A DNA stretch of 63,137 nucleotides, filler included, from Collodictyon triciliatum (taxonomy: Eukaryota): the NCBI GenBank assembly GCA_043381765.1. It is 14 parts of 14 records of this genome, joined end to end, with 100 filler letters (N's around TTAATTAATTAA, not from the genome) between each part and the next. Parts side by side here need not be neighbours in the genome. Positions count along the whole stretch, not along the records: positions 4,652 to 9,193 come from JBHJMP010005975.1; 13 more parts are not named here. One strand, given 5' to 3'. Numbering within the stretch: the first letter of the stretch is position 1; the number at the start of each line of letters is the position of its first letter. The notes below the pieces were generated by a model that saw nothing but the letters and a program-made list of their open reading frames with translations, was not told where the DNA came from and made no database searches. The position numbers were made by a program, and so were the translations under genes. Shown here one piece after another: positions 793 to 60,319 of this stretch.

Positions 793-3180
793 ATGGCCTC
801 CAACATCCAAGAATTCTGCGAGATCACAAGCGCTTCTGTCGAGGAAGCTACCTTCTATCTCCAGCAAACGAACGGCGATCTTGAGGTTTGAACGTCCGCT
901 TCTTGACTGCCTTTTTGGCTCAAATGGTATTTGGTTATAGCTTTTCTTTCTTTTTTTCTTTTTTCTTTTTTTTCTTTTTCTTCTTTTTTCTCTATTTCTT
1001 TCTTTCTCTATTTCATTGTTTGTTTGTTTTGTTTTTTTGTTTGTTTGTTTGTTTGTTTTTTTCTTTGTTTGTTTGTTTCTTTTTTTTCTTTGTTTGTTTG
1101 TTTGTTTGTTTGTTTGTTTGTTTGTTTGTTTGTTTGTTTGCTTGTTTGCTTGTTTCTTTTTTTCTTTTTCTTTTTTTCTTTCTTTCTCTATTTCTTTGTC
1201 TCTTTGTTTCTCTATTTCTTTCTCTATTTCTCTATTTCTTTCTTCTTGTTTCTTTTTTGTTTCTTTGTCTTTTCGTTTTTCTTTTGTGTCCGGTGTTCTT
1301 TAAGATTTCCCCTTCCCTCGACAAACGCCTGTCCATATGCCAGCTCTACAGTGTAGTTTAACCCTCGTCTTCCTTGGTTTTTTTCAAACGTAGGGTGCCA
1401 TCCTCCGTTTTTTCGAGGACCATGGAGAAGGCGATGAAGAGGAGCCGCCAGTGCAACCTGTTCGACACGTTAGTAACTAATATATCGAAAATCCAAGCTC
1501 ATGCTTCCTGCTTGTTTTTATTTCTGTGTCTTTTCTTTTGTTCATTCAACTCTAAGGTGTTGGTTTTGTGGATGTTGATATGTGAAAAAAAATTATACTC
1601 CACTGCGGTAACGTAAAGCTTGGATATCAACATGATTTAACGGACTCGTAAAAATCTCTCAACAGGCCCAAGTAGAGCCACCACGGTCTACAATTCTGCC
1701 TGTAGCTCCGGTTCAGCCTGAGCCCGTGGCTTCAAATCCATCCTCATCAGCCCAAGCGAAGAAGAAGCCAACTAACAGGTTTGATACACGTCTGTGTTTG
1801 CTTCTGTATGACCAAGGCATTCACGAGAATATTGACCATTGTGATAACTGTATCGATGTGACTGTCGTGTAGTGCCGGACCACGCATTGGAACATTCTCT
1901 GACCTGNNNNNNNNNNNNNNNNNNNNNNNNNNNNNNNNNNNNNNNNNNNNNNNNNNNNNNNNNNNNNNNNNNNNNNNNNNNNNNNNNNNNNNNNNNNNNN
2001 NNNNNNNNNNNNNNNNNNNNNNNNNNNNNNNNNNNNNNNNNNNNNNNNNNNNNNNNNNNNNNNNNNNNNNNNNNNNNNNNNNNNNNNNNNNNNNNNNNNN
2101 NNNNNNNNNNNNNNNNNNNNNNNNNNNNNNNNNNNNNNNNNNNNNNNNNNNNNNNNNNNNNNNNNNNNNNNNNNNNNNNNNNNNNNNNNNNNNNNNNNNN
2201 NNNNNNNNNNNNNNNNNNNNNNNNNNNNNNNNNNNNNNNNNNNNNNNNNNNNNNNNNNNNNNNNNNNNNNNNNNNNNNNNNNNNNNNNNNNNNNNNNNNN
2301 NNNNNNNNNNNNNNNNNNNNNNNNNNNNNNNNNNNNNNNNNNNNNNNNNNNNNNNNNNNNNNNNNNNNNNNNNNNNNNNNNNNNNNNNNNNNNNNNNNNN
2401 NNNNNNNNNNNNNNNNNNNNNNNNAGAAGGTGACGACGAGTACCAGGACTTGACCCAAAAGAAAAAGTCATGGTTTACTGGCCAGGGTAAAAATTCCCAA
2501 TTGAATGCCCTCGCTGTTTTTGTTTGCCATTCCACTCAAAAAAAAAACCTCCATATCATGATATTTTTGATCTTCCTAATTTGCGATAAATATTCGCTCA
2601 CAATCGGATATATTGTATTTCTAAACTATATGCTTTGGGTATATAGGACAGTCATTGGGAAACAGCGCCGCCAGTGGGCAGAAAGTTGCCGGAGCAACTG
2701 CTCCTCCGACCGTCGTACGTGTCGATTCTTGAAAGCTGCCTATTTTAGCCTCTACATGGTCCTCATAAACTGCCTATTTGGAGGATAGCTAACCCTTCAA
2801 GCGAATTTGATAACCAGGTGAAGAAAGTCATCTACTTCTGGGCTAATGGATTTTCAGTTAATGATGGTCCTCTCCGCGGTCTTGATGACCCAGCAAATAT
2901 TGCTTTTATTCGTGATATACAGCAGGGGTATGTTAGAACCGAATTATTTCCCCCTTTATTCGATTCAAAGATGCTGCAACTGAATCTTGAAGTTTCAGTA
3001 TGAACAATCAGCTATGCTCGCTTCGGGGATATACAAACCATATCAGTGTTTCTAACAGTTGTGACATGCAGTTTTATCCCCAAGGAACTCACATCCGAAG
3101 CTGTGAACGAGAAGATTGCGTGAGTTGATAATGTTATTTCATGACAGCACGATTATTATTACTATTATTATTATTATTAC

Positions 3181-3247
<67 letters not shown>

Positions 3248-4179
3248 TTAAAAAAGGAAAATGAAAATATGGAATTATACGCTTCCACGCGCTATATTCG
3301 ACTCATATACCAACTATATGTTTTCTTTCTACATATCTATAAGGGCTCAGAGGGTGCGATTGAACCATAGTTTATTCTATTAACCAATCTAAAATACTTA
3401 ACTCCAATCAAGAGTCGATGTCGAGGACAGAAGAACTGAACAATACGTGCCACCACCGAAGCCAAAAGCAGCAGCGTTTGCTGGAAGCGGACAAAAGCTA
3501 TCATCTACGTAATAATCATTTTTGGTTTTAAATTTTGCATTGGTACACCAACAACAACAACAACAACAACCTTTTTTTAGTTCCTTTAATCATCCGAACA
3601 TAACTACATCCTCTTTCAGACCTGCTCCTACAGTCGCAGCTCCAGTTGTCTCTCACAGCGGTAGTAGCAAGATTGTTCTGAATGAATCGGAGCCTACCAC
3701 AACGGTTTGTCTTACATTTTTTTTCCAGGTGATGCGCTCAATTACCATGCCATGGGAATATCTCTTTCGCTTGGCAAATAAGCGCATATATTCTACTCTG
3801 TTGAAATCATACATGTCTGCTTATCTATATATTTTTGCTTTTGGATAGGTTCAAATTCGTTTACACGACGGGTCAAGAATTGTCGTCAAGTTAAACCACA
3901 CGCACACAGTGGGCGACTTGTACAAGCATGTTGATGCGTAAGATGAAATACATATCAATCAGAGGGGCATCTATTATTACGTATTTGCGTTAGAGTCAAA
4001 TGAAACACACCAATATTGCGGTCTGAAATATATGCCGTCATGTGGTTTACAGGACAACAACACCCGGAAAAAAGTTTGTCCTATCAAACACATACCCCCG
4101 GAAAGCTCTGACCGACATGGCGCAGACGGTCGCAGAAGCAGGCATTTTGAATGCGTCCCTCCAGCACTCTGTCAGCTAG
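793..4179 (+). CDS. NSFL1C: p47/NSFL1C (Shp1) p97 cofactor, UBA-like + SEP + UBX, multi-exon, interrupted by an N gap
   Basis: Spliced exons: MASNIQEFCEITSASVEEATFYLQQTNGDLE (793-885) | GAILRFFEDH (UBA-like); VIYFWANGFSVNDGPLRGLDDPANIAFIRDIQQG | FIPKEL (SEP); VDVEDRRTEQYVPPPKPKAAAFAGSGQKL; TTT | VQIRLHDGSRIVVKLNHTHTVGDLY; FVLSNTYPRKALTDMAQTVAEAGILNASLQHSVS* (UBX; TAG 4177-4179). GT-AG boundaries keep frame. Confidence 0.93.
915..1290. repeat. Intronic T-rich low-complexity tract with (GTTT)n microsatellite
   Basis: Visible tandem GTTT and TTTC runs inside p47 intron 1; source of spurious F/L/V/C ORFs. Confidence 0.9.
3152..3247. repeat. (ATT)n microsatellite; similar tracts at ~15139-15232 and ~46205-46298
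   Basis: Direct reading. Confidence 0.9.
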
Positions 4180-4478
4180 ATATACCAAGACATAACCCCT
4201 GATATTTCGAATAAACAAGAGACTGGGCACCAGGATACAAAATCGAGTTAGAATCATAGAAAAGCGACGGAAGGGATATGCGAGAAGCAGAACTAGAAGG
4301 AAAAAGAGAGAAGAGAAGAATTGGACATAAGTGGTTCATTCCTTTCGTGTAGTCTGTCCAGAGGGGCTTCTAAAGACCATGTTGTTCTTTTCGCGATTTT
4401 TTTTTGAAGGTGGCGGCTGTTTTTATTTGAAAGTGGTGACTTCAATCTAGCAGGTATTTGGTTGCAAAGATAGAAGAG

Positions 4479-4481
<3 letters not shown>

Positions 4482-4543
<62 letters not shown>

Positions 4544-4551
4544 ACACACAC
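4482..4551. repeat. (CA)n microsatellite at contig end; another at ~16158-16238
   Basis: Direct reading. Confidence 0.9.
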
Positions 4552-4651
4552 NNNNNNNNNNNNNNNNNNNNNNNNNNNNNNNNNNNNNNNNNNNNTTAAT
4601 TAATTAANNNNNNNNNNNNNNNNNNNNNNNNNNNNNNNNNNNNNNNNNNNN
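4552..4651. other. Artificial contig-joining spacer (44N + TTAATTAATTAA + 44N), first of 13
   Basis: Linker starts at 4596, 9238, 13880, 18521, 23159, 27798, 32439, 37075, 41710, 46343, 50975, 55606 and 60237; it carries stop codons in all six frames. Confidence 0.97.
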
Positions 4652-5992
4652 TGGGATTGGGATTGGGATTGGGATTGGGATTGGGATTGGGATTGGGAAT
4701 GGTATTTGGAGTGGGAGTGGGAGTGGGAGTGGGAGTGGGAGTGGGAGTGGGAGTGGGAGTGGGAGTGGGATTGGGATTGGGATTGGGATTGGGATTTTGA
4801 ACGGGATTTCGATTTGGTTTTTGAGCGAGATTTTGAACGGGATTTTGAACGGGATTTTGAACGGGATTTTGAACGGGATTTTGAACGGGATTTCGATTTG
4901 GTTTTTGAGCGAGATTTAGAGCGGGATTGGGATTGGGATTGAAGAGTTAAATCAGATATGCCCCATATTTTAATTGTTTTGTCATCACTTCCGGAAACAA
5001 TTTTTAAACCATCAAGAGTAACAGCAACACTACGAACACTACTAGTATGACCTGTTAATGTGCGAATCAAAGCTCCATCAGAAAGATTCCATATTTTGAT
5101 TTTTTGGTCACCACTTCCAGAAACAATTTTTGAACCGTCAGGAGTAACTGCAACACCACTAATCCAAGTAGTATGACCAGTCCATGTGCGCACTAATACC
5201 CCATCAGAAATATTCCAAATTTTAAGTGTCATATCATGACTTCCAGAAACAATTTTTGAACCGTCAGGAGTAACAGAAACACTGTAAACATTGCCAGTAT
5301 GACCTGTTAATGTGCGAATCAAAGCTCCATCAGAAAGATTCCAGATTTTGATTGTTCTATCGCCACTTCCAGAAACAATTTTTGAGCCGTCAGGGGTAAC
5401 AGCAAGTCTGTATACTTTATTAGTATGGCCACTGATTGTGCGAATCAAAGCTCCATCAGAAAGATTCCAGATTCTAAGTGTTCTATCCCAACTTCCGGAA
5501 ACAATTTTTGAGCCATCAGGAGTAACAGCAACAGCCTCAATCCAATTTGTATGACCTGTCAATGTTCGAATAATGACTCCATCAACAAGATTCCAAATTT
5601 TGATTTCTTGATAACTCCCAGAGACAATTTTTGAGCCATCAGGTGTAACAGTAACAATCCAAACTTGATTAGTGTGGCCAGTCAGTGTGCGAATCAAAGC
5701 TCCATCAGAAAGGTTCCAGATTTTAACTGTTTTATCATGGCTTCCAGAAACAATTTTTGAACTATCAGGGACAGTAGCAACACTCCAGACATTATTGGTA
5801 TGACCTGTCAACGTGCGAATCAAATCAGCTCGTCCTTCAACTGGACAAAATTGGCAGTGTTATATCAATCCTAAAAATGTGTTTATTAATACTCTACATA
5901 ATTTGAAGTGTAATAAAATAAAACAATATAAATTCAATTAACAACGCACCCAATAGCAACAAAGCTGCAAAAAACTTTGAATTCGATCTCAT
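4652..5992 (-). CDS. Predicted signal peptide + 7 near-identical WD40 repeats + Ser-X dipeptide stalk; 3' end lost in gap
   Basis: Exon 1 5992-5950 (ATG AGA TCG AAT TCA AAG TTT TTT GCA GCT TTG TTG CTA TTG G), intron 5949-5841 (GTGCGT...TTTTGTCCAG), exon 2 in frame with ORF 4600..5823. Gives MRSNSKFFAALLLLVEGRADLIRTLTGH..., seven ~42-aa GH...W repeats, then (SQ)n(SRSK)n(SH)n(SQ)n. Confidence 0.85.
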
Positions 5993-8017
5993 TCTAAATT
6001 AAAGTGATGTATGTTTAAATACCGGAATAAAATTTTATGATATGGTTTACACTTAATTTATATATTTTTAAGTATATAATATTGAATAACTACACTAAAT
6101 TTTAATTGATTGATTCAGAAATAGATATCTATAAACCGATTTCATAACTATAGTAAATTATATGAAAATAAATCTTTCAAAATATAGACACTCCTATTCA
6201 TATCGATTGATAACTTTTACTATTTTATTTCATAATCTAGCGACTGACTCGGATTGATTCGTAAAAATTAATCATAAAAGTGAAAAATTCTCTCCAATTT
6301 AAAATAAATCGAAGGTATCAAATTTTTATGATTTTTATGATTAACAAACATTTAAATTAATATTCAATCGTATGATATAATCTTTTTGACAAAGTAATTG
6401 TTTTTACAATTGTATGTGTAGAGTCTGATGTGCGAATACTGTGGAAAAATCATTAATTAATATTTGATAAATGATGTTTTATATAAATGCAATGCATTTT
6501 TGACATAGTGAAAAATTGAGCATGAAACTCATGCACAGTAGCCTTATTATGAATAAATATATGAGTATAAATCATAGGAAGTAACTTAAAATTAGGTTTA
6601 AGTAATAAGAGAATAAAATAATTCAAGTTGAGACTAATAATTCTGGTTTCTCTAAGTTACGAATGAAAAAAACTATACTATTCATCATAATTTATAATTC
6701 AACAGAAGCCATCATCGATGAATTATGAACAATTTTAAATCAAAAGATTATATCATGCCCATGAGTAAATTTAAAAAATAAATAGATTGGATTATCATCC
6801 AATCAATTTACGAGAATTTGACATTATTAAATATAAAAAATATTAATAATTATGGATGTATGTCAAAAACTAAGTATGTATCCAGTTTATGAATAATATA
6901 TCTTATCAAGAAGAAAATTTTCCGATTATTTGATTTGATTTTGCTCGTATATTACGTATATAGAATATGATTAGATAAAGAGATATTTAATATATTGGTT
7001 ATTTAATCATGCGTTCAAAAATAGCAGCTTCATAATTCACATTTTCCATTTTTTCATTTAAATTTATCTATAAATAATAATAATAAAAATCAAATATTTA
7101 ACTCATCTCTTCTTTTCCCAGTCTTTCAAATTTGGGCGAGCAGATTATACCATAATTTAATCATAAGAAGTGATTAATGACGTGTATAATTGAATATTTA
7201 TCGACTCGTATATTCATAAATCATGAGAATTCTAATGAGATAAATTTGTTAATTGAAATGATATATTAATATAATCAATTTAAGTGTATGAGGGAATGTA
7301 CTTTTATAATGTGAATATTATAAATAATTAATATTGAAAGGCAATATCATAAAAAAACTCAATACCAGAATGATTGGCGTCGATTGAAAAATCACTTCAT
7401 TAATTAAAACATATTATATATAAATATTCCTTTGAATATCGAAATATAAATTTCTCAATGAATTTCAATAGAAAACTTAATCAACATGCTACTGATGATT
7501 AATTATCAAAATTCATGTTTACATAAAACAAGAAACATCATTAATTTGAATCGTTTTATTGTTTACCATATATTTACACACAATATATCAAAAAAAAATC
7601 ATATATTTAAATTATTGCATCATTAGATAAAGTTTACTATATCGATTATAAAAGAAACCCTGTTTGCCAGACTTCATTGGTGATTATCTTGGAGAAACAA
7701 GCATAACGATATTGCTCTATAACATGGATTTTGAAAACCTCTTTCGAATTATGAATATGTTTTATGCAAATGAATTTTTATTTTAGTTAACTGAATTATC
7801 AATTTTTTTTATAGGTATGCTTACTCTTGAAGTATATATCACTCATTGGCAGAATAGGGGCCCACATGATGAATCAAAACCTAGTGTTGTGTGATATTTT
7901 ATTATAAACTGATTCAAATACCAAAAGATATTATGTGAGTATTGGATATCATCGCTAACAGGTTTAATAATGCACAATAAGTTTCAGTATTATTATACGC
8001 GTGTAAATCTGATTCAT

Positions 8018-8442
8018 TTTTTATTCTTCCTTTCAAATTTTTGGAAGATGGTGGGGATTTGGCTATCGAAACTAGTCATTGTTTGCATGGACGCTACTTG
8101 GTGGCCGGGTGGCGGAGAAGTAGTCAGTAATCAGGAATTGCATCGTGCGATTTGGCGTGTAGCCTGGGTCTTGGGCTTGAGTGTGAGACAAGGCGAGGTT
8201 TAATCTCTTTATCGGCTTCTTTCCACATGTCTCTTCTCACAGGGATTGAGTAATAGAGAGCATCCTGGTGGCAAATGAAGCCGTTGAGGGGAGAGAGACT
8301 TGTATGACGTCATTCAGCCTATTGCCAGGAATGGTGATTGATTGTTAAATCCTGCTTTGCGTGAGTATATGGGTGCTATCCACATAGTCCATAGCATATT
8401 GCCTCGCGTCATTGTCCAGAAAGTTTTTTTGCCTCTGGGCTA
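8018..8442 (-). mobile_element. 5'-truncated, degraded non-LTR retrotransposon copy with 13-bp TSD
   Basis: Reverse complement aligns by eye to ~28128-28560. A-rich tail lies at the low-coordinate end. Identical direct repeats AAATCTGATTCAT at 8005-8017 and 8443-8455. Confidence 0.88.
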
Positions 8443-9057
8443 AAATCTGATTCATAGCTATTATTATCTCATTCTAGATAATGATACTCCAAAATAGTAA
8501 TTTTTAATCAACCTCTCTTTAAATGACGTATGTGTTGGAAACTGTATTAATATTTTTTCATTAAACTCAGAACCAAAGCTTGCTGATATAAAATATGATT
8601 AATTATTTTGACTATTAATCGTGATATGTCTCATATATATCCACATTTGATTGATTACTGCTATGAATATGATACACAGTTTCTTTGGAACCAATATAAG
8701 CCAAATATTTATAAGATGCCAATACTATGAAATATGATATAAAATGATTCATGGATACATAAAGCAGCAAACGTCCTTATATCAATTAAATTACAATTAT
8801 TTCATGATATAATTTACAAGTGAAATTATGGTTATTCAAGGATTTTACATGTGCATCTAAACAGACAGAATGAATCCTCCTTGTTGAATGTTTAGTAAAA
8901 ATTGATGAATAATATTAATGAGTTAATTAAGATGTATACATGTTTAAAATTTATACTAGGCCATATTTTTTCAGATAGAAAAATAAATCGGACAATATCA
9001 TAGATTTAATGCCATGGTAGAATCATCAAATACGAAACGATGATAGAGGCCATACTG

Positions 9058-9193
9058 TATGTATGTATGTATGTATGTATGTATGTATGTATGTATGTAT
9101 GTATGTATGTATGTATGTATGTATGTATGTATGTATGTATGTATGTATGTATGTATGTATGTATGTATGTATGAATGTATGTATGTATGTATG
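9058..9193. repeat. (TATG)n microsatellite at contig end; (CATA)n at 9294-9389 on the next contig
   Basis: Direct reading. Confidence 0.92.
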
Positions 9194-9425
9194 NNNNNNN
9201 NNNNNNNNNNNNNNNNNNNNNNNNNNNNNNNNNNNNNTTAATTAATTAANNNNNNNNNNNNNNNNNNNNNNNNNNNNNNNNNNNNNNNNNNNNATACATA
9301 CATACATACATACATACATACATACATACATACATACATACATACATACATACATACATACATACATACATACATACATACATACATACAGAGTAAAACA
9401 AGGCCAAAATAAAGGTTCTGAATAC

Positions 9426-27853: not shown

Positions 27854-28561
27854 AACCCCGCAAGTCCTTCCAAATCACCGCTCTCTAATGCTTAATATCA
27901 CCAATAGGGAGCTATGGATAGGCACACGCGCGGCAAAAGCTGGCAAAGTCTCCCAACAATGCACACTTTGCAGCGACGGTGATGAATCCATTGAGCACAC
28001 ATTTTTTACAATGTCCCTTCGCTCAAAACCTGCGCGAAACAGCCGGTGAGATTCTTCAGCTGACACTCAAGACAGCTGCGGCTGTTGGGCCAATCCAGGC
28101 GATGTTTGGGCCTCTGCAACAGCTGCGTCCAGATGCAAAAACATTCTGGGCAGTAACGCGAGGCCATTTTCTATGGACTATGTGGATAGCACGCATATAC
28201 TCACGCAAAGTAAGGGTCAACAACCAGCCACACATTCCTGATAATAGGCTGGATGACATCATACAAATCTCTTTTCTCACCAGCTTTCTTCGCCACCTGC
28301 ACGTTCTCTATTACTCAGACCCTGTGAGAAGAGATATGTGGAAAGAAGCTGAGAAAGATGTTAAACCTCGCCTTGTGTCTCTCATGCAAGCACAAGACCC
28401 AGGCTACAGGCCAAACCGCAGGATGCAATTCCTGATTACCGACTATTTCTCCACCACCCGGCCAACAAGTAGCGTCCATGCAAACGATGGCTAGCGAACC
28501 AAAGCCAGAATCCCTCAATATTCTGCACAAAATTGAAAAAAAGAAGAAAAAGGAAAAAAAA
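27854..28561 (+). mobile_element. 3' end of L1/Tx1-type non-LTR retrotransposon ORF2 (zf-RVT-like CCHC) with short 3' UTR and A-rich tail
   Basis: CTLCSDGDESIEHTF(+1 frameshift in T run)LQCPFAQNL...FLWTMWIAR; C-x2-C-x8-H-x4-C knuckle; stop at 28494; A-rich tail ~28535-28561; two more copies in the window. Confidence 0.85.
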
Positions 28562-28657
28562 ATGAACCCCTGGAATAGCCATACGCCGCATCGCGCATAT
28601 TACAAAGTCTCACCTTCAAAAAAAAAAAGGGAGAAGCAAGATACCCACCCACGCAGA

Positions 28658-29790
28658 ATGCTGAGCAGCGAGTACCAAGACAATGACGGCAGCGACGACG
28701 ACCAGCAAGCGAACAAAGACACAGAGCACCGCGACACAGAATGGGGCCTGGGTAGGAGACTCGGGTCGAGCTGAAGCAACTGCTCCACCTCGGAATCCCC
28801 ACAGTATTGACAAATCTGCTGCTGTTCCTACTGCATACTACGGACCAGATGATGGTGGGGCACCAAGGCAAGAATGAGCTGGCAGCAACAGCGCTGGGCA
28901 ACACATGGTTCAAACTGTCGTGGTTCTTTTGCGTCGGTGTGAGCACCTATCTCGACACATGCTGGGGACATGATGCTGCCATTGCGCGGCTGACGGGAGA
29001 CTACTGCCTCTGGCTGATTCCCGGGGTGTCGTTTCTCGCTGTGACCACGGTCCTGCAGGAGCACCAGCAGGCGCAAGGCTGTATGGCTCCGTGTCTGGCC
29101 TGGGCCTTGCTGCCAACCTCTTCAACATCCTAGCAAACTATGCGCTCATCTGCACTGCGGAACTCGGGCTCACAGGCACAGCCATGGCGACGTCTCTGAT
29201 GCGCGCGATGCTCAGAGCGGGCTTTGCCTGGTGGGTATGACAGACGGATGTATGTGACGAGGCAGCAGCCGGAGTCATGGCTGCGCTGGAGGTCTCGAGC
29301 TTCCAAGGAGCCGCGATTCTGGCCGAGGCAGCGGGTGACATTGTTGCGCTGGATGCCCACGTCATCCTCCTGACCGTCTGCATCCTGCTCTACGTGGCGC
29401 TGGACATCTGCGGGGCTGTCCTTGTCGGGCTTATGCTGCTGTCCTTCGTTGCGACCCCAATTCATCTCGCACGTGCCTATGTGCCTGCGGCCTTCACCAG
29501 CGACATGCGGCCGCCCTCGTCCCAGTCGGCGCCCTCTTCTACATTGCCGACAGGCTGCAAGGCATCGCGGTCTGGGCCGTCACCGTCTGGTTGCTGTCAG
29601 GTATCTTCTCGGCTACTCGCTCGTCACCATGCCTCTGGCGGCACTCCTGGCTTTACGCCTCCCTTTCCTGCCCGACCTCTGCATCGGCCTCGTCGGCATC
29701 TTGTGGGCACTCTTTACCGTCGCATTAGCCCCCACGGACAGGCACGCTTGCGCCCACGGCGCTCCTACTTATCTCCTTCAGGACGTCTGC
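28658..29790 (+). pseudogene. Intronless, GC-rich MATE (SLC47/DTX-like) transporter pseudogene
   Basis: Fragments in shifting frames: ELKQLLHLGIPTVLTNLL...DQMMVGHQGKNELAATALGN...GVSTYLDT; YCLWLIPG...LQEHQQAQG; ANLFNILANYALI...LGLTGTAMATS; MAALEVSSFQGAAILA...VALDAH. Frameshifts plus an internal deletion after LDT. Confidence 0.82.
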
Positions 29791-30075
29791 AGCAGTGCAC
29801 AGCTATCCGTCCCAATCAATTATTCTTTGCTAGGCCTAAAGTCGCAAAAATGGTGAGGTCTTCTATTCTCTTCTTCCTCCTCCTGCTCTGTTATCGATAC
29901 CAATACAAATATATGTTCCGGTCTGTGCTCTCTGGGGTCGATTATGGCTGAAAGGAGACAAAGTGCTCTGTGGGTGTAGGATTAAGTGGATGTGATGATT
30001 TCTTAACAAATTAAGGTCTGGTATTCACCCTCAGCCCTGTATGGCTCGGGTAGGGAAGGAAATAAAAATAAAAAT

Positions 30076-30204: not shown

Positions 30205-30905
30205 ACTAGCTTCGGTACCTGTGCTTCGCCTCGGAATGGGTGAAAACAAAAAAGAAAACATATAAACGGATGAACGAAGCATAACAATTAATACTGAGCA
30301 CTATATTCATAATTATTTTGCTCTCTGTGAGTTGATGGCTAGAACATGAAGCCTACTAACCCTTTCATCAGGCCTTTCTTGTTCTCTTCGATTCATTGCG
30401 CGGATTGCTTGGTCATGAAGCCATTCTTCTATTTGCTGCAGTGTCTCCTTTTGCTTTCTTTGCCTGTCGTACACCTGCATATTTGCTAGTTCGGTTTCCC
30501 TTTTTTTTTCAGGCGACTCATTATGCTTATCATATTGCAGCTGCTTTTTTCTTATGTCCTTCTCAAATTATGGGAATTTACTTGGTCGTCGCTCATGCAG
30601 ATAGGACGCGATGAAATGACCTTTCTGCTTATCTTATTGCTCAATCAAATCGAACTAATTGGTTTTATATGTATGCCATTCGATATTCAAACTTCTTAAC
30701 ACAATATCAGCATGAAAAGCCGTCAATTATATATCTCAATCTCTTCTAATGACATAAAACTTACACTGTTTTTACGGAGCTGTTTTAACCCACTTTATTA
30801 AGGTGAATATACTTGCATTGACTATTATTTCTAGGGGCAAAGAAGGGTATAAACTTGTCGCGCCTAATTAATAGTAATATGGATGGGCTCTATATGGGAG
30901 TAGGA

Positions 30906-31535
30906 CGGCTTTGGAAGGACGCTGAGAACTCCGGCAGCCACCATGGAGCGATGATACGCAGCATCGGGTACAGCACTTATATGGAGCTTGAAGTGTACCA
31001 GGCGCCACGCAATCACCAGCCGCGCCAGCAACGTCTCCAACAAGTACCAGCGCTCGCACATACATTTCGCCTGGATGACCCGGAAGATGTTATCCTTGAT
31101 AAACTTTTTCAAAAGGTCCTTCTTAAACACCTGCCGCGCTCCGATCTTGAGTGCCTTGTCGTGCACTGCACTTCGAAAGTCATTATTTTCAGAGTGGGTT
31201 TTGTTAGTCGTGTGTCTTAAGCCTTTCTTTTTCTTTTTTCTTTTTTCTTTTTTCTTTTTTCTTTTTTCTTTTTTCTTTTTTCTTTTTTCTTTTTTCTTTT
31301 TTCTTTTTTCTTTTTTCTTTTTTCTTTTTCTGGAATGGTTTAAAATAGGTTGAAGCGGTGGAAGGCAAGCGCGCAGAAGCAAAACAGGTGGCAATAGACC
31401 CACTCCTGCCTCGCCTTGGCCGTCGATGATAATACAGCAGTAGATCTAGTAGTCCTGTCTAAAAGCCACTTGAGGATGCAGGATGTGTTGAGGCCGCCCG
31501 AGTAGGCCAGTTCAACCTTCTCCTCGGCGAATGTT
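30906..31535 (-). pseudogene. ASS1: Argininosuccinate synthase pseudogene (N-terminal part)
   Basis: KVELAYSGGLNTSCILKWLLD (canonical LAYSGGLDTS); DFRSAVHDKALKIGARQVFKKDL...YLLETLLARLVIA (canonical KALKLGAKKVF...YLLGTSLARP); after a deletion and frameshift, LRIIAPWWLPEF (canonical IAPWR.PEF). The HGATGKGNDQ motif is missing. Confidence 0.85.
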
Positions 31536-32831
31536 TTGGCAGTGATTCTGATATTATTTTTTTTTTTTCCTTTATTCGATTCAAAGTGTAGCGAGGTGGC
31601 AGTGATTCTGATGTTAATGCTGATGCTGATGCTGATGCTGATGCTGATGCTGATGGGTTGAGCATAACCTTCGTTCCTATGTGCCAACAAAAAGGTGTGC
31701 CTTACTCAGCCGCTGAGAGACAATTCTCAAAGAGGCACCTTGTCCAGAGAGGCATTTGTTGGGCTCAGCGCGGAAGGAAAGAACGTCCGCCAAGCGTGGC
31801 TTTATGCGTTCTGTTTGCTATTGAGGCAGCACCCGTTTCTCGCCTCTTCATGTTTCTTAATTCCTGTTGATACGCCCACCATCACCCCACCAACGCCGCT
31901 GAGGAATGTGATGTGATAGTGTGTCTGAAGGGATTAAGGATTTGTTCAGCAACCACAGCTTCATGACTTTATCACTGTAGATGCATGTGCGTCTTTGGTT
32001 GGCTGAACTCTGCAACGATGTAGGGAAAGAATTCGTGACGTCGGGTACATGGTTCGTTTGTGTCATGTGCGTTTTGCTTGGGTGGCTAGCATGTGGCTTG
32101 CTGTGGCAATTCTTTCTGGCATGGAGACTCAGCACATTAAGCAAAAACTATGCAAATAGAATATGGCCAACTTTTTTTCATCATTGGAGATACATGTGTC
32201 ATTCTTGTGCTTACATACATGACTCTGCTCATTGTTTTATTGTTTTTGATTGTTTTTGATTGATTGGTTTTTATTGGTTTTTATTGGTTTTTATTGGTTT
32301 TTATTGGTTTTTTATTGGTTTTTTATTGGTTTTTTATTGGTTTTTTATTGGTTTTTTATTGGTTTTTTATTGGTTTTTTATTGGTTTTTTATTGNNNNNN
32401 NNNNNNNNNNNNNNNNNNNNNNNNNNNNNNNNNNNNNNTTAATTAATTAANNNNNNNNNNNNNNNNNNNNNNNNNNNNNNNNNNNNNNNNNNNNTTTTTC
32501 TTTTCTCTTTTTTCTTTTTTCTTTTTTCTTTTTTCTTTTTTCTTTTTTCTTTTTTCTTTTTTCTTTTTTCTTTTTTCTTTTTTCTTTTTTCTTTTTTCTT
32601 TTTTCTTTTCTTTTCCTTTTTTCTTTTCCTTTTTGCTTTTTCTTACTTTTTTTACTTTTTCTTTTTCTTTTTCTTTTCTATTTTTTCTTTTTCTTTTCTA
32701 TTTTTCTTTTTCTTTTTCTTTTTCTTTTCCTTTTTACTTTTTCTTACTTTTTTTTACTTTTTCTTTTTTCTTTTTTCTTTTTTCTTTTTTCTTTTCTTTT
32801 CTCTTTCTTTTTTTTTTTCTTTTTCTTTTTC

Positions 32832-46398: not shown

Positions 46399-47446
46399 CG
46401 CAACAAGCTTCACGGCGAAGAGGCCTGCCTTCAGCTGCACCTTGAAGACCAGCCCGAAGCCGCCCTTGCCCAGGAAGTTCTCCCGTTTCTCAAAGTCCAT
46501 CGTCAGGAGATCTGCGTAGTTGCCGCGGGCTAGGCGGCCGGTTGGGGCTGCGTAGATGCCCGACTGGATGTTGGGACTGGCTGCAACCTGTGAAAGTGGA
46601 AGGTTTGTGTCAGGTAAGTCTGTTAGCTTTTCTAGCTTCTGCGGTGGTGTCGACCTAGGGTTATGTTAGTTGTGTCCTGTGTTGTGTATGTGGGGGTTGG
46701 AGGTGGATGTGTGCTTACGGGGTCGTAGAGCTGCAGAGCGCGGATGTGTTGGTAGTCTCTGTGTCCTGTGTTATTCCAGCAGGGGAGATTTGAGATGCCA
46801 CGCGGGGCTCTCTTTATGGTTTGTGTGCATCCGTTGTTTATATACAGACTTTTCAGATTTGTGAGTGCTGTGATCTGTGCTGGAAGCTCCTCCATCTGCG
46901 TGTGTCGTTGTCAGTCATTTTCTTTTAAACATAAATAGTAATATAATATGAATAAAAACATACCGGATTTGCATGAACAGAAAGTTCTATGAGACCAGTC
47001 AGACACGATATTTGTGCAGGTAGTGATGACAACATATTGCCACGAACATAAAGATATATGAGACCAGTCAAACACGATATTTGTGCAGGTAGTGACGACA
47101 GGTTATTATCACCAACATCAAGTTTTATGAGACCAGTCAAACACGATATTTGTGCAGGTAGTGATGACAGCTTATTGTCATAAACATGAAGTACACTGAG
47201 ACCAGTCAAACACGATATTTGCGCAGGTAGTGATGGCAGCTGATTGCGATAAAGATACAATCCTTTCAGACCAGTCAACAGAAAAACACCAGGCGGCACA
47301 GATGACAGATTCTTGTAACGGAAATTCAGGAATGTGGAGCTTTTCAGAGTGGCAATATCAGCAAATGATCTCCCATAGTCATCTGCAGAGAGTTTCCGGA
47401 CTTCTTCCATCAGTGCAGCATCTTCAGCAGACAAAGTGTTTCCCAT
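46399..47446 (-). CDS. LRR + protein kinase (RLK/Pelle/IRAK-like or other TKL N-lobe) with N-myristoylation motif, 3' partial
   Basis: Exon 1 47446-46964 MGNTLS... with 23-aa LRRs (LSSLPAQISCLTGLxxLxVxxN; 69-bp period at 46991/47060/47129/47198); exon 2 46895-46719; exon 3 46587 to gap, ending FEKRENFLGKGGFGLVFKVQLKAGLFAVKLV. Both introns are phase-0 GT-AG. Confidence 0.85.
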
Positions 47447-47739
47447 GATCTGGACAGATTCCGGCTGTATATATGGGTAGACTGGCTGGGTGTCAATACA
47501 ATACACATCATTTATTTGTTTTATGAGTGGACTTGACAATCACACAGTACAATATTACTCGAGTCAGGACGGTGGGGTTGTGCACACAGAGATCAGAAAG
47601 TACTTTGTGAAAAAAAAAAAGAGGAAGGATTTCGACAAGACGAGTTTAAATATCCCGCAAAGGCCGGCGGATTTTTCCGAGAAGATGACTTGTGCAGAAC
47701 TTGTGTGCTTGTGCTTCCTTGTAAATTCACCGGTTCGGG

Positions 47740-48213: not shown

Positions 48214-49040
48214 GTCCGCGATTCGACTTTGTTGCTCAATAATCAGGGAATTGGGCTTCGAATGTTCCCCACAACTAACACATATTGCACTATTTTGACA
48301 AGGAAAATTCAATTTTTGTGCTCTATGCATGAATAAACCTTCTATATGAATTATAATAAAGTTCATCGACTAAGTTTGTGCAAGTACAAAACAAAGTGCT
48401 CAAAATACGAAGTAAGAGCAAAATAGAATATCTGATTGCTTAAGACTTACGGTTTTCGTATTCCGGCATAGTGGAGACCCTTTGTGTATTGTCCGCGATT
48501 CGACTTTGTTGCTCAATAATCAGGGAATTGGGCTTCGAATGATCCCCACAACTAACACATAATGCTATATTATGACAAAGAAAATTCAATTTCTGTGCTC
48601 TATGCATGAATAAACCTTCTATATGAATTATAATAAAAAAAAACATCGACTAATGTATGCACTTGCTCAAAGCAAAGTGGTCGAACTGAAGATAAAAAAA
48701 CATCTGATTGCTTAAGACTTACAGTTTTCCTATCCGACATAGTGGAGAGCCTTGCTGACTTTGCGTGTGTGAAGCATACTCCATTGCTCAATAATCAGCT
48801 AATTGGGCTTCGAATATTCCACATATCTGACACATATAGCATTATTTACACAAGAAAAATTCGATTTTTGTGCTCTATGCGTGAATAAACTTCTATATGA
48901 ATTATAAAAAAAACATCGACTAGGTTTATGCAAGTACAAAACAAAGTGCTCGAATTGAAGAGCAAAATAAAATAAAGTATCTAATTGCACAAGACTTACG
49001 GTTATCGTATTCGGCATAGTGGAGAGCCTTTGCGGGTCTT
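48214..49040. repeat. Three tandem copies of a ~276-bp unit
   Basis: TTGCTCAATAATCAG...AATTGGGCTTCGAAT recurs at ~48232, 48509 and 48784; GTCCGCGATTCGAC at 48214 and 48491. Confidence 0.88.
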
Positions 49041-50930
49041 GTGTGAAGCAGACTGCGTCGTATTCCGGCATAGTGGAGAGCCTTTGAGGGTCTTGCGTGT
49101 GTGAAGCAGACTGCGTCGTATTCCGGCATAGTGGAGAGCCTTTGCGGGTCTTGTGTGAGGCAGACTTCGTCACATTCCGGCATAGTGGAGATCCTTTGTG
49201 TGTCTTGTATGAGGCAGACTTCGTCGTCTTCGGGCATAGTGGAGAGCCTTTGCGGGTCTTGTGTGAGGCAGACTTCGTCACATTCCGGCATAGTGGAGAG
49301 GCTTCGAAGTTGCGTGTGGAGCAGACATCGTCGTATTCCGGAGAATGGAGAGCCTCTGTGTGTCTTGTGAAGCAGACATCGTCGTATTCCGGCATAGTGG
49401 AGAGCCTTCGAAGTTGTGTGTGAAAAGCAGACTTCGTCGACGTTCGGCATAGTGCACAGCCTTCGAGTCTTGTGTGAGGCAGACTGCGTCGTATTCCGGC
49501 ATATTGGAGAGCCTTTGCGGGTCTTGCGTGTGAAGCAGACTTCGTCACATTCCGGCATAGTGGAGAGCCTTTGCGGGTCTTGTGTGAGGCAGACTGCGTC
49601 GTATTCCGGCATAACGCATATCCTTTGCGGGTCTTGTGTGAAGCAGACTTCGTCGACGTTCGGCATAGTGCAGAGGGTTGTGTGTGTGTGAAGCAGACTT
49701 CGTCACATCCCGGCGTAGTGGAGAGCCTTCGAGTTGCGTATGTGAAGCAGACTTCGTCGTATTCCGGCATAATGGAGAGCCTTTGCGGGTTGTGTGTCTT
49801 GTGAAGCAGACTGCGTCGTATTCCGGCATAACGCACAGCCTTTGCGGGTTGTGTGTGTGAAGCAGACTTCGACGTTCGGCATAGTGGAGAGCCTTTGCGG
49901 GTTTTGTGTGGAGCAGATTGCGTCGTATTCCGGCATAGTGGAGAGCCTCTGTGTATCTTTTGTGAAGCAGACTTCGTCGACGTTCGGCATAGTGCAGAGA
50001 TACTTTGCGGGTCTTGTGTGAAGCAGACTTCGACGTTCGGCATAGTGGAGAGCCTTCGAAGTTGCGTGTGAAGCAGACTTCGTCGACGTTCGGCATAGTG
50101 GAGAGCCTTAGCGGGTTGTGTGTGTGAAGCAGACTGCGTCGTATTCCGGCATAGTGGAGAGCCTTCGTGAGTCTTGTGTGGAGCAGACTTTGTCGTATTC
50201 GGCATAACGCACAGCCTTCGCGGGTATTGTGTGAAGCAGACTTCGTCGACGTTCGGCATAGTGCAAAGCCTTCGTGGGTCTTGTGTGGAGCAGACTTCGT
50301 CGACGTTCGGCATAGTGGAGAGCCTTTGCGGGTCTTGTGTGTGAAGCAGACTGCGTCGTATTCCGGCATAACGCACAGCCTTTGCGGGTTGTGTGTGTGA
50401 AGCAGACTTCGACGTTCGGCATAGTGGAGATCCTTTGCGGGTCTTGTGTGAAGCAGACTTCGTCGACGTTCGGCATAGTGCAGAGATCCTTTGCGGGTCT
50501 TGTGTGAAGCAGACTTCGACGTTCGGCATAGTGGAGAGCCTTTGCGGGTTTTGTGTGGAGCAGATTGCGTCGTAGTTCGGCATAGTGGAGAGCCTTTGCG
50601 GGTTTTGTGTGGAGCAGACTGCGTCGTAGTTCCGCATAGTGGAGCCTTTGCGGGTCTTGTGTGAGGCAGACTTCGACGTTCGGCATAATGGAGCCTTTGC
50701 GGGTCTTGTGTGAAGCAGACTTCGTCGACGTTCGGCATAGTGCAGAGATCCTTTGCGTGTCTTGTGAAGCAGACTGCGTCGTAATCCGGCATAACGCATA
50801 TCCTTTGCGGGTCTTGTGTGAGGCAGACTTCGTCGTATTCCGGCGTAGTGGAGCCTTTGTGTGTCTTGTGAAGCAGACTGCGTCGTATTCCGGCATAGTG
50901 GAGAGCCTCTGTGTATCTTTTGTGCGAAGC
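49005..50930. repeat. ~55-62-bp minisatellite array, about 33 variant units, truncated by gap
   Basis: Consensus TCGGCATAGTGGAGAGCCTTTGCGGGTCTTGTGTGAAGCAGACT(GCGTCGTAT/TCGTCGACG)T repeated head to tail. Confidence 0.95.
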
Positions 50931-58467: not shown

Positions 58468-60072
58468 TTAAAATCTGAAAAAAAAACATTCCTTGGTATT
58501 TGATACCGTGCTAAAAGATGCATCGGGATAAATAGGATACAGAAAATACATCAAAAGTGGCGCGATTATAGCGACAATGATTTCCACACTATACTCATAA
58601 TTCATGAGTACAGCTTTGATTTTGAGAGACTTTCCCAAATACTTGTCCTCGGTTATATCTATATCCTCAGAGTAAGAGTTTGAGTTGCAATTTCTGTCTT
58701 GGTGGGGCTGTAAGACCACTTGATTTTTTGTGATTTTTGGAAACATTTTCCTCTGAAACCATTTTCCAAGACGATGAGAAGCTAAAACCCTTTGTTTGAA
58801 TGTCACCGTCGTTACAACCTCTACCAACATGATAAGGGAGTTAACCAAAGCGTATTGAAAATAATTTGACCCGTTTGCGGATAGATTGGATAACGTGATT
58901 CTGCCCAAAAACTTAATATGTGTCAAAGATATTTCATTTACGATTAATCTGGTTTCAGTTAACTCGTCTGATAAATCAAATATCACATATGTTTGGTACG
59001 ATTTGACTGCAAAGAAAATCAAGGGGAACATCACCAACCGACATAAAGCCTGAAGGAAAAACGAAAGAGAAATCAGAATTGGAAGGAAGTAGCGAAAGAA
59101 TATTCCCATCGTTACGAATAAAACCATCAGCCCTTTCATTAAAGCAAATGGTGTTCCATCCTTTGTGAGAGTATAGTATATTTGTTGCTCTGAAAGCATA
59201 TTCGGAGGCTCTGGACTTTTTTTGACAAAGTAAAATCCAAAACAGCAAGCAGCAAATTGAATAACATTTCTCAAAGCGGCAGCCCATGATGTTTCGCGCT
59301 GGGGAATTGAATAGAGGAGAACGTCAAGTATGAAACAGGGAATAATTATGTAACATATGGCTTTCCTTGAAAAATGGGTCGAGTATATATTTCTGATAAT
59401 TAAACACAGAGCTATGTAGTAACATAATGCTCTGATGTAAGCTCGAATCAGGTCATAAAGTACAAAATAAATTTCATCAAACGTTTTAGGTGCGAGAACT
59501 CGGGCTGGGATGTAGTATACCCACATAAACAGAATAATAGGGATCAGTATGGGTATCGTCTTCATCAATATGCGAAGCCACAAAATGAGTGCAAGTTTTA
59601 GCGAAGAAAAAAGGTTTCGCCTATGATAGGTTACTTTTGTATTTGTATTTTCCTGATTCAAACAGGATATTTTTTTCTCTATTCGGAGCTTCTCTCCAAC
59701 TTTACAGCTGCTTCTTATTTCAGTCTCATGATGAACATCGGGAACCTGGTTGACGTTTGGAATACGATTGCCTATAGAAACTGTATCATCCAGCTCATCT
59801 TGACCCTGCGATTCCATCAATTCCAAGACGATATCTTGACCATTTGTTGCAATATTGTTTATGTAAGGAGAATCTTTGCCAGAACAAGAAAGAAAGGCTG
59901 GGGTACGCTCGGTCCAGGTATTGATTCGTACAGAAATGTAGGAATCGTGTCCTCTTTCTCCTAGTTCCATCCCTTGCTCTACTTCTGGTCCTATGTTATC
60001 ACGAGTTATCTCCACGACCAAATCCCGACTCGTTTCTGAATGAAAGTTGGCTATTTTGCTGTCTCCCTCCAT
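58468..60072 (-). CDS. Intronless 534-aa multipass membrane protein of unknown family; probably continues to ~58292 after a homopolymer frameshift
   Basis: Long ATG-initiated ORF with a hydrophilic N-terminus and many hydrophobic segments. A T9 run near 58478-58486 shifts into a further hydrophobic ORF (58292..58489). Confidence 0.7.
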   Translation of the reverse strand: MEGDSKIANFHSETSRDLVVEITRDNIGPEVEQGMELGERGHDSYISVRINTWTERTPAFLSCSGKDSPYINNIATNGQDIVLELMESQGQDELDDTVSIGNRIPNVNQVPDVHHETEIRSSCKVGEKLRIEKKISCLNQENTNTKVTYHRRNLFSSLKLALILWLRILMKTIPILIPIILFMWVYYIPARVLAPKTFDEIYFVLYDLIRAYIRALCYYIALCLIIRNIYSTHFSRKAICYIIIPCFILDVLLYSIPQRETSWAAALRNVIQFAACCFGFYFVKKSPEPPNMLSEQQIYYTLTKDGTPFALMKGLMVLFVTMGIFFRYFLPILISLSFFLQALCRLVMFPLIFFAVKSYQTYVIFDLSDELTETRLIVNEISLTHIKFLGRITLSNLSANGSNYFQYALVNSLIMLVEVVTTVTFKQRVLASHRLGKWFQRKMFPKITKNQVVLQPHQDRNCNSNSYSEDIDITEDKYLGKSLKIKAVLMNYEYSVEIIVAIIAPLLMYFLYPIYPDASFSTVSNTKECFFFRF

Positions 60073-60319
60073 ATGGTAAGGTAATTAAAGAAATTCCAAT
60101 GAGTTTTTCTCGAGCTTGTCTGGACACACAATGGAAGCGCCTAAGTGGAGAGGGTGGGGCAGGAGTTTCTATAAAAAAAAAAAAAAAAAAAANNNNNNNN
60201 NNNNNNNNNNNNNNNNNNNNNNNNNNNNNNNNNNNNTTAATTAATTAANNNNNNNNNNNNNNNNNNNNNNNNNNNNNNNNNNNNNNNNNNNNAAAAAAAA
60301 AGAAAAAAAAAAAAAAAAC

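Follow-up and report, generated by a model that had tools for sequence, protein, structure and literature searches.

A stand-alone, highly symmetric seven-blade WD40 propeller of Collodictyon triciliatum and its putative signal-peptide leader

Introduction

The question raised by this locus is what kind of protein a WD40 repeat gene encodes when it stands alone at the end of a small scaffold, and whether that protein works inside or outside the cell. The gene belongs to Collodictyon triciliatum (assembly GCA_043381765.1) and lies in a window, the whole stretch of DNA that was analysed, of 63,137 nucleotides. The window consists of 14 small unplaced scaffolds of ~4.54 kb each, strung together by linkers, and adjacency across a linker is meaningless. 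The WD40 locus is on the minus strand of the scaffold at 4652-9193 (JBHJMP010005975.1), whose first base, 4652, adjoins a 100-bp linker (Table 1). A sequence-only reading had proposed an apparently secreted seven-blade propeller on a Ser-rich stalk, with a hypervariable top face that would make it a candidate recognition receptor.

Here, we report that the gene is very probably a real, complete, stand-alone, and highly symmetric seven-blade WD40 propeller, which binds a ligand, is under purifying selection, and has a differentiated top face. It adds to the highly repetitive WD40 propellers already known. As a more tentative reading, which we place only slightly ahead of an intracellular one, the protein may be exported through a putative signal-peptide leader encoded by a short upstream exon.

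Results

Seven repeat units code for one closed propeller

Tandem Repeats Finder (TRF) detected a period of 126 bp in 6.9 copies, from 4963 to 5824, and the Pfam family PF00400 (WD40) matched the same gene in seven stretches (E 8.5e-79; 257 bits, cut-off 27). When the repeats were cut at the GH motif, seven units of 42 amino acids (aa) were obtained, except that unit 2, which has lost one codon plus a conserved Asp, has 41 aa. The earlier count of exactly seven repeats of ~126 bp is thus borne out by the period, the Pfam stretches, and the unit length. All 293 propeller codons are open in AT-rich DNA, and the propeller exon extends over 1.19 kb without an intron.

A single-sequence model by AlphaFold2 (AF2) reached a pLDDT of 92.7 and a pTM of 0.87, while the other four of the five models scored 37-57. 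The 28 strands of this model comprise one N-terminal strand, four strands in each of six blades, and three in the last blade; together they form a closed seven-blade propeller, in which the N-terminal strand that follows the acceptor site completes blade 7 as a "velcro" strand. Therefore, exon 2 codes for exactly one complete propeller.

Five of the seven blades (units 1, 3, 4, 5, and 6) also carry an N-x-S sequon at one shared site in the C-D loop (W-N-L/I-S-D-G), a feature that would matter only for a protein routed through the secretory pathway.

The blades are old and their fold positions are constrained

Any two blades share 62-76% of their residues (median 71%) and 71-81% of their nucleotides. 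Fifteen of the 42 columns are invariant; more than one codon occurs in 11 of these, which therefore carry synonymous differences. Synonymous divergence (dS) and its ratio to nonsynonymous divergence (dN/dS) were calculated from Nei-Gojobori counts over all 21 blade pairs of this one gene, a comparison in which no alleles or paralogues take part. The 36 scaffold columns gave a dS of 0.56 and a dN/dS of 0.25. A DNA identity of 71-81% together with this dS indicates that the blades are old, and a dN/dS of 0.25 at such a dS indicates that the fold positions have been kept by purifying selection and not by recent amplification or gene conversion. No sign of concerted evolution, recent amplification, or repeat exchange is seen among the blades. 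The description of the repeat scaffold as nearly invariant was overstated, given the protein identity and the number of invariant columns. The six most variable columns (11, 12, 14, 15, 30, and 32) gave a dN/dS of 0.95 with saturated dS; within this one gene, the value is not above 1 and hence does not exceed neutrality.

Beta-propellers are called "highly repetitive" when the median blade identity is >60%, according to Pereira & Lupas 2022 (PMC9218822), and the median of 71% lies above this threshold. The gene differs from the WRAP type, defined by near-identical blades with few or no synonymous differences, in both its DNA identity (71-81%) and its dS (0.56).

The variable residues gather on the top face

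Four codons of HET-E/HET-D are positively selected, all of them on the top of the propeller, and the selected pairs of HET-E are positions (7,9) in the d-a loop and (25,27) in the b-c turn (PMC1805685). In the numbering used here, these positions are columns 12, 14, 30, and 32, which are among the five most variable columns of the blades. Taken as an a-priori set, the four columns hold 122.9 of the 385.2 nonsynonymous differences (32%) and 8% of the synonymous ones. A nonsynonymous share this large was reached by just 3 of the 111,930 subsets of four columns. In the AF2 model, columns 11-12 immediately precede strand A, whose first residues include columns 14-15, and the B-C turn contains columns 30 and 32. 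The blade-specific residues at the top face are often W, Y, R, H, or K, and in the model they together form one fixed, asymmetric predicted binding surface.

The residues listed earlier as variable (NNVWS...SSVRS and HDK...DDK) match ours exactly, and their placement on one face, as in fungal HET-E/HNWD, agrees with the AF2 mapping to the D-A loop, the start of strand A, and the B-C turn. The terms "hypervariable" and "diversifying" are not supported, as what varies are the long-diverged blades of a single gene, with a dS of 0.56 and a patch dN/dS of 0.95. Hypervariability in the immune sense would have to be seen between alleles or paralogues. Residue differences from blade to blade on the top face are expected of any asymmetric WD40 binding surface.

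A putative first exon would supply a start codon and a leader

The stop-to-stop frame of the WD40 repeats starts at 5859, and its first in-frame ATG comes only in unit 5; since the frame has no usable ATG, an upstream exon is required. The minus strand offers 33 first-exon candidates (ATG..GT) in the right phase between 5841 and 9193, 12 of which have their ATG at or below 7000. The exon at 5992-5950 is the nearest of the 33, and it is the most hydrophobic of the six that were long enough to be scored among the 12 nearest. An in-frame TAA is located 9 nt upstream of ATG 5992. At the acceptor, the only AG with a preceding pyrimidine run is at 5842-5841, and a second in-phase AG lies 6 nt downstream. 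We infer that a start at ATG 5992 and the removal of a 109-nt phase-1 intron would be the only complete gene model that this sequence offers.

The spliced model has a leader of 19 residues, with a basic n-region, a nine-residue hydrophobic core, and E-G-R-A, followed by the first propeller strand. By inspection of the model, the c-region has G at -3 and A at -1. The putative phase-1 intron would interrupt the frame five codons ahead of the presumed cleavage site, and an excess of phase-1 introns has been reported near the cleavage sites of signal peptides (PMC1626468). The 43-nt upstream exon of the sequence-only reading joins in frame and yields the leader exactly as quoted there, but its splicing is a model, with no read or contig over the junction.

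To judge how often such a leader would arise by chance, we counted the ATG frames with at least 15 open codons in the window (n = 1176). An equally hydrophobic 8-residue stretch is found in 47 of them, and 11, this leader included, are hydrophobic and have K/R and no D/E near the start. Among frames simulated with the local composition (T 0.42, A 0.35), 5.9% were merely hydrophobic and 1.5% were leader-like. On these counts, chance appears to be a poor but not negligible explanation of the leader.

Public sequencing runs cover the locus sparsely

Four public runs matched, sharing 0.06-0.08 of the words sampled; one was a poly(A) metatranscriptome, and the other three were metagenomes from lakes or fresh water. 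On 4940-6300, the runs gave short, near-identical pieces of upstream non-coding DNA, and a 151-nt contig of the poly(A) metatranscriptome aligned to 4962-5105 with one mismatch, a weak sign of expression. The metagenome pieces hint at an organism living in lakes, and the RNA contig hints that the last repeat may be transcribed. No read or contig in any of the four runs covers 5538-5997, which contains exon 1, the intron, and their junction; therefore, the sparse cover is evidence neither for nor against the 5950/5840 junction.

The tail is microsatellite DNA and the upstream region shows no coding similarity

The open frame continues past the propeller into a low-complexity tail. TRF resolved its DNA into a hexamer microsatellite of 24 copies with 94% matches and a 12-mer of 11.5 copies, and the microsatellite is open in two of the three frames. 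Since no GT donor precedes the first 12-mer unit, translation has to include at least the first ~20 tail codons, provided that the mRNA continues. Because the scaffold stops within the microsatellite, it lacks the true C-terminus and any anchor. A metagenome scan with a 25-mer at the propeller/tail junction, performed to recover the C-terminus, gave 0 matches. The amino-acid make-up of such a tail may carry no meaning. A "Ser-rich stalk" in the sense of a glycosylated spacer was rejected, because the basic SQ/SR/SK/SH sequence of the tail comes from a microsatellite where the assembly breaks off, with a second frame open too.

The 3.2 kb upstream is AT-rich (23-33% GC) and shows no recognisable coding sequence. 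None of the eight upstream open reading frames (ORFs) of at least 50 aa matched a Pfam family at E up to 1, and the best E was only 0.073 when 240 relatives, including their NACHT, NB-ARC, kinase, TIR, and BTB parts, were compared with 5993-9193 by tblastn. Thus, no STAND ATPase (NACHT/NB-ARC) or kinase coding was found in the upstream 3.2 kb, a view limited to the scaffold, and the earlier statement that no NACHT domain precedes the repeats holds over this distance. By tblastn, a WD40 paralogue is also absent from the other 13 scaffolds of the window. Bacterial contamination was ruled out: the WD40 frame is without a start codon and requires an acceptor, and it lies amid 3.2 kb of non-coding DNA with 23-33% GC.

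Relatives are mostly multi-domain proteins

The relatives of the propeller are overwhelmingly multi-domain proteins, namely fungal NACHT-WD40, cyanobacterial NB-ARC/nSTAND/kinase/TIR-WD40, and Reticulomyxa NB-ARC-WD40. The best match among proteins of 157-503 residues was a kinase-WD40 protein of Tolypothrix (55% identical), and matches to longer proteins reached 53% (fungal NACHT-WD40, cyanobacterial NB-ARC/nSTAND, and Reticulomyxa NB-ARC). In the metagenome protein scan, 479 of the 589 matched stretches encode relatives, and 80 were kept. Neither an orthologue nor a same-species paralogue was found in two protein searches and the metagenome scan, and the best of the kept matches was 57% identical. 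This metagenome relative, L001, occupies 953-5014 (+) of a bacterial contig as an ORF of 1353 aa. Its protein combines a membrane/signal segment at the N-terminus with a long run of WD40 blades that closely resemble one another and with C-terminal Ig-like and FlgD_ig domains. The ESM Atlas returned generic bacterial and fungal WD40 clusters only. The closest solved structure was 2ymu (the Nostoc WRAP propeller, E 3.4e-155), followed by the WRAP-T designs, PkwA, and WDR5; RACK1 and G-beta were also among the strong matches in the Protein Data Bank (PDB).

Ranking by a seven-blade profile intermixed kinase-, TIR-, and BTB-linked proteins with stand-alone and exported ones, so that sequence places the gene in no single architecture. 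The nearest blades are found in bacteria, archaea, and probable eukaryotes alike. A bacterial origin by gene transfer was considered; trees are unreliable for independently amplifying, consensus-like repeats. A hydrophobic N-terminus is present in 24 of the 210 relatives that start with M. In nine, it sits immediately ahead of the GH motif and the first strand, and several of the nine are proteins of ~350 residues that consist of the propeller only. Three propeller-only relatives of 353-355 aa with a hydrophobic N-terminus (P0010, P0029, and P0102) have, in several blades, a two-cysteine loop inserted in the B-C turn, which is the second variable patch of the present gene.

Other features of the window

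Microsatellites are found at many scaffold ends across the window. The N-terminal domain of an argininosuccinate synthase is present as two fragments at 30867-31705 (-) (E 9.9e-9 and 6.7e-5), split by an (AAAAAG)n-type microsatellite and with degenerate-looking residues, and is possibly a pseudogene. These fragments were considered as a source for an intron consensus and dropped, as the gene looks degenerate and is interrupted by the microsatellite. A 204-aa open frame at 46928-47539 (-) contains leucine-rich repeats (LRR_8, E 3.7e-16). The long open frames at 48802-50928 (-), with 709 aa, and 58471-60084 (-), with 538 aa, match no Pfam family at E up to 0.001. A GC-rich block at 28001-30000 (GC 0.54 vs 0.23-0.44 elsewhere in the window) has open frames of 140-236 aa that overlap and are found on both strands; no Pfam family matched any of them. 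A short frame at 30316-30567 (-) matches the Pfam family STPRs (E 5.7e-6; 27.1 bits, cut-off 27).

Table 1. Coordinates of the WD40 locus and of the assembly linkers in the window
Feature	Position	Strand	Description
Low-complexity tail	4652-4947	-	98 open codons, S45 Q14 K14 H11 R9; runs off the scaffold end
Exon 2, propeller part	4948-5840	-	2 nt + 4 codons (c-region EGRA), then seven WD40 units
WD40 units 1-7	5826-5701, 5700-5578, 5577-5452, 5451-5326, 5325-5200, 5199-5074, 5073-4948	-	
Putative phase-1 intron, 109 nt	5841-5949	-	GT..AG, GTGCGT...TTTTGTCCAG; in-frame stop if read through; predicted splicing
Putative exon 1, 43 nt	5950-5992	-	ATG and n-/h-region of a signal-peptide-like leader; joins exon 2 in frame
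Upstream scaffold remainder	5993-9193	-	AT-rich, GC 0.23 at 6001-8000; no coding similarity detectable
Assembly linker next to the locus	4552-4651	no strand	44 N + TTAATTAATTAA + 44 N; sequence below is a different scaffold
Assembly linkers (13)	4552-4651, 9194-9293 ... 60193-60292		Identical, 100 bp, every ~4.64 kb; 44 N + TTAATTAATTAA + 44 N

Discussion

Export, intracellular function, or relic

In the reading that we tentatively prefer, a transcript from ATG 5992 would lose the 109-nt phase-1 intron, and the 19-residue leader would be placed before the propeller. Acting as a signal peptide that is cleaved off, the leader would direct the propeller into the secretory pathway, and the top face of the propeller would bind an extracellular or luminal ligand. 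The exported propeller would be either free or tethered by the basic low-complexity tail. This reading is made plausible by the nearest in-phase ATG exon with its n-, h-, and c-regions, by the phase of the putative intron and its place near the putative cleavage site, and by exported bacterial relatives built to the same plan. Several points weigh against export. The leader was judged by inspection and a crude hydropathy rule, its hydrophobic core of nine residues is short, and the T-rich local DNA yields hydrophobic peptides by chance. The unspliced read-through from ATG 5992, which stops after 32 codons, is hydrophobic also, and 32 further ATG exon candidates are possible, as is an internal exon. 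The propeller has no cysteines, the basic SQ/SR/SK/SH tail resembles a nuclear RS-type segment rather than a Ser/Thr/Pro glycosylated stalk, the closest stand-alone relatives by blade profile (P0012, P0063, and P0005) are without a hydrophobic leader, and 5538-5997 is without cover in all four runs. To our knowledge, canonical eukaryotic WD40 proteins are almost all cytosolic or nuclear, and literature searches for exported canonical WD40 proteins in eukaryotes yielded only CRINKLY4, LGI1, and GEX3, which are presumably non-canonical. Some of these points (the usual intracellular location of eukaryotic WD40 proteins, the nearest stand-alone relatives without a leader, the lack of cysteine in the propeller, and the junction without RNA) also argue for a cytosolic or nuclear WD40 scaffold, a reading that we regard as possible in its own right. 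In such an adaptor, another 5' exon would be used, or the hydrophobic start of the 43-nt exon would not be a working signal peptide; the top face would bind a peptide or protein as WDR5 does, and the SR/SK/SH/SQ tail would be disordered, RS-like, and nucleic-acid-binding or nucleus-targeting. The presence of WDR5, RACK1, and G-beta among the strong PDB matches is consistent with it, as are the composition of the tail (S45, K14, R9, and H11 of 98 residues) and the rates of chance frames (5.9% hydrophobic and 1.5% leader-like). However, no alternative exon with coding similarity was found in the 3.2 kb upstream, and the nearest in-phase ATG exon gives a full n-h-c leader with small residues at -3 and -1, which is rare by chance. 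A nine-residue hydrophobic run would also be odd at a cytosolic N-terminus, and the tail is microsatellite DNA, so its composition may be meaningless.

Two other explanations are less probable than either export or an intracellular role. The locus is unlikely to be a relic, that is, the surviving sensor end of a STAND/NLR- or kinase-type WD40 gene that is not functionally expressed, with its N-terminal domains lost or on another scaffold and a leader that is a chance frame. The multi-domain architecture of most relatives, the position on a 4.5-kb unplaced scaffold bounded by microsatellites, the codon and conserved Asp missing from unit 2, and the lack of an orthologue or paralogue in the searches made would all fit a fragment. 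They are opposed by the 293 open propeller codons in AT-rich DNA, the dN/dS of 0.25 at fold positions, an exon boundary exactly at the start of a complete, closable propeller, the absence of any trace of other domains in the 3.2 kb upstream, and one near-identical poly(A) metatranscriptome contig. The full proposal of the sequence-only reading was a diversifying family of secreted WD40 receptors, with a top face hypervariable between copies or alleles. Outside the cell, these receptors would be the equivalent of HET-E-type sensors and would serve to recognise prey, pathogens, or self and non-self. We consider this very unlikely. The variable columns are the same as in HET-E/HET-D, the blade identity is over the 60% threshold for "highly repetitive" propellers (PMC9218822), and the leader is plausible. 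On the other hand, there is no recent amplification, repeat exchange, or concerted evolution (DNA identity 71-81%, dS 0.56, synonymous changes in 11 of the 15 invariant columns), and the patch dN/dS of 0.95 does not exceed neutrality. The window's 13 other scaffolds contain no second copy, the two protein searches and one metagenome scan yielded no protein more than 57% identical, and differences between blades are typical of every asymmetric WD40 face. Beyond the position of the variable residues, we see no support for such a family. Likewise improbable, though slightly less so, is the reading that a eukaryote here secretes a canonical GH-WD propeller whose blade-specific top face serves in recognition or adhesion outside the cell, as one of a receptor family in a predatory flagellate; such a gene may descend from an exported bacterial WD40 gene that gained an intron in its signal region.

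Most of the highly symmetric WD40 propellers known so far belong to STAND/NLR proteins of cyanobacteria and fungi. According to PMC9218822, fungi account for 84% of the eukaryotic examples. A stand-alone example in a deep-branching freshwater protist widens the known distribution. The present gene represents an older stage, in which the fold positions are held by selection and the binding face is differentiated. If the leader is real, it would be a rare canonical WD40 domain that works outside the eukaryotic cytoplasm, in a layout so far mostly bacterial, and an easy, stable scaffold for ligand-binding tests. If the leader is not real, the gene would be an ordinary WD40 adaptor on a poorly assembled scaffold.

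Comparison with known systems

The exported bacterial WD40 proteins (e.g. L001, P0035, P0010/P0029/P0102, P0212, P0216, and P0234) have a signal or membrane segment directly before the first strand and GH, and several of them consist of a seven- or eight-blade propeller only, of ~350 aa, like the present layout. Their blades are 38-57% identical to those of the present gene, and they have a similar ending, "...W.ISDL". They differ in that some have cysteine-pair loops or caspase-like or Ig-like domains, and they are no closer to the present gene than the cytoplasmic kinase-, TIR-, and BTB-WD40 relatives.

The WRAP propeller of a cyanobacterial STAND protein (Npun_R6612, 2ymu) and WRAP-T are similar in their consensus-like 42-residue blades with GH...SPDG...SGS.D.T.K.W, and in WRAP, too, most differences between blades fall on these few positions of the top face. 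The blades of WRAP are almost the same in sequence and show no synonymous differences (PMC9218822), in contrast to the DNA identity of 71-81% and dS of 0.56 found here. In addition, WRAP has 14 blades fused to a STAND ATPase, whereas the present gene has seven blades and no ATPase within 3.2 kb. HNWD/HET-E/HET-D of Podospora share the high internal conservation of the WD40 units and the variation at the same top-face columns. They differ in having an N-terminal NACHT domain, an intracellular location, repeat exchange, concerted evolution, and positive selection, none of which is seen in the present gene.

Adaptors of the WDR5 type are alike in size, fold, a single closed propeller, and short extensions, and the match has an E of about 1e-70. 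Such adaptors bind through the top face. The blades of WDR5 are strongly diverged and it has no hydrophobic leader, whereas the median blade identity of the present gene is 71%. The CRINKLY4 ectodomain, the EPTP domain of LGI1, and GEX3 are presumably non-canonical, in that we take them not to be PF00400 GH-WD repeats and not to be highly symmetric. They resemble the propeller described here, and the role that we tentatively propose for it, in that they are described as seven-bladed, extracellular ligand-binding modules.

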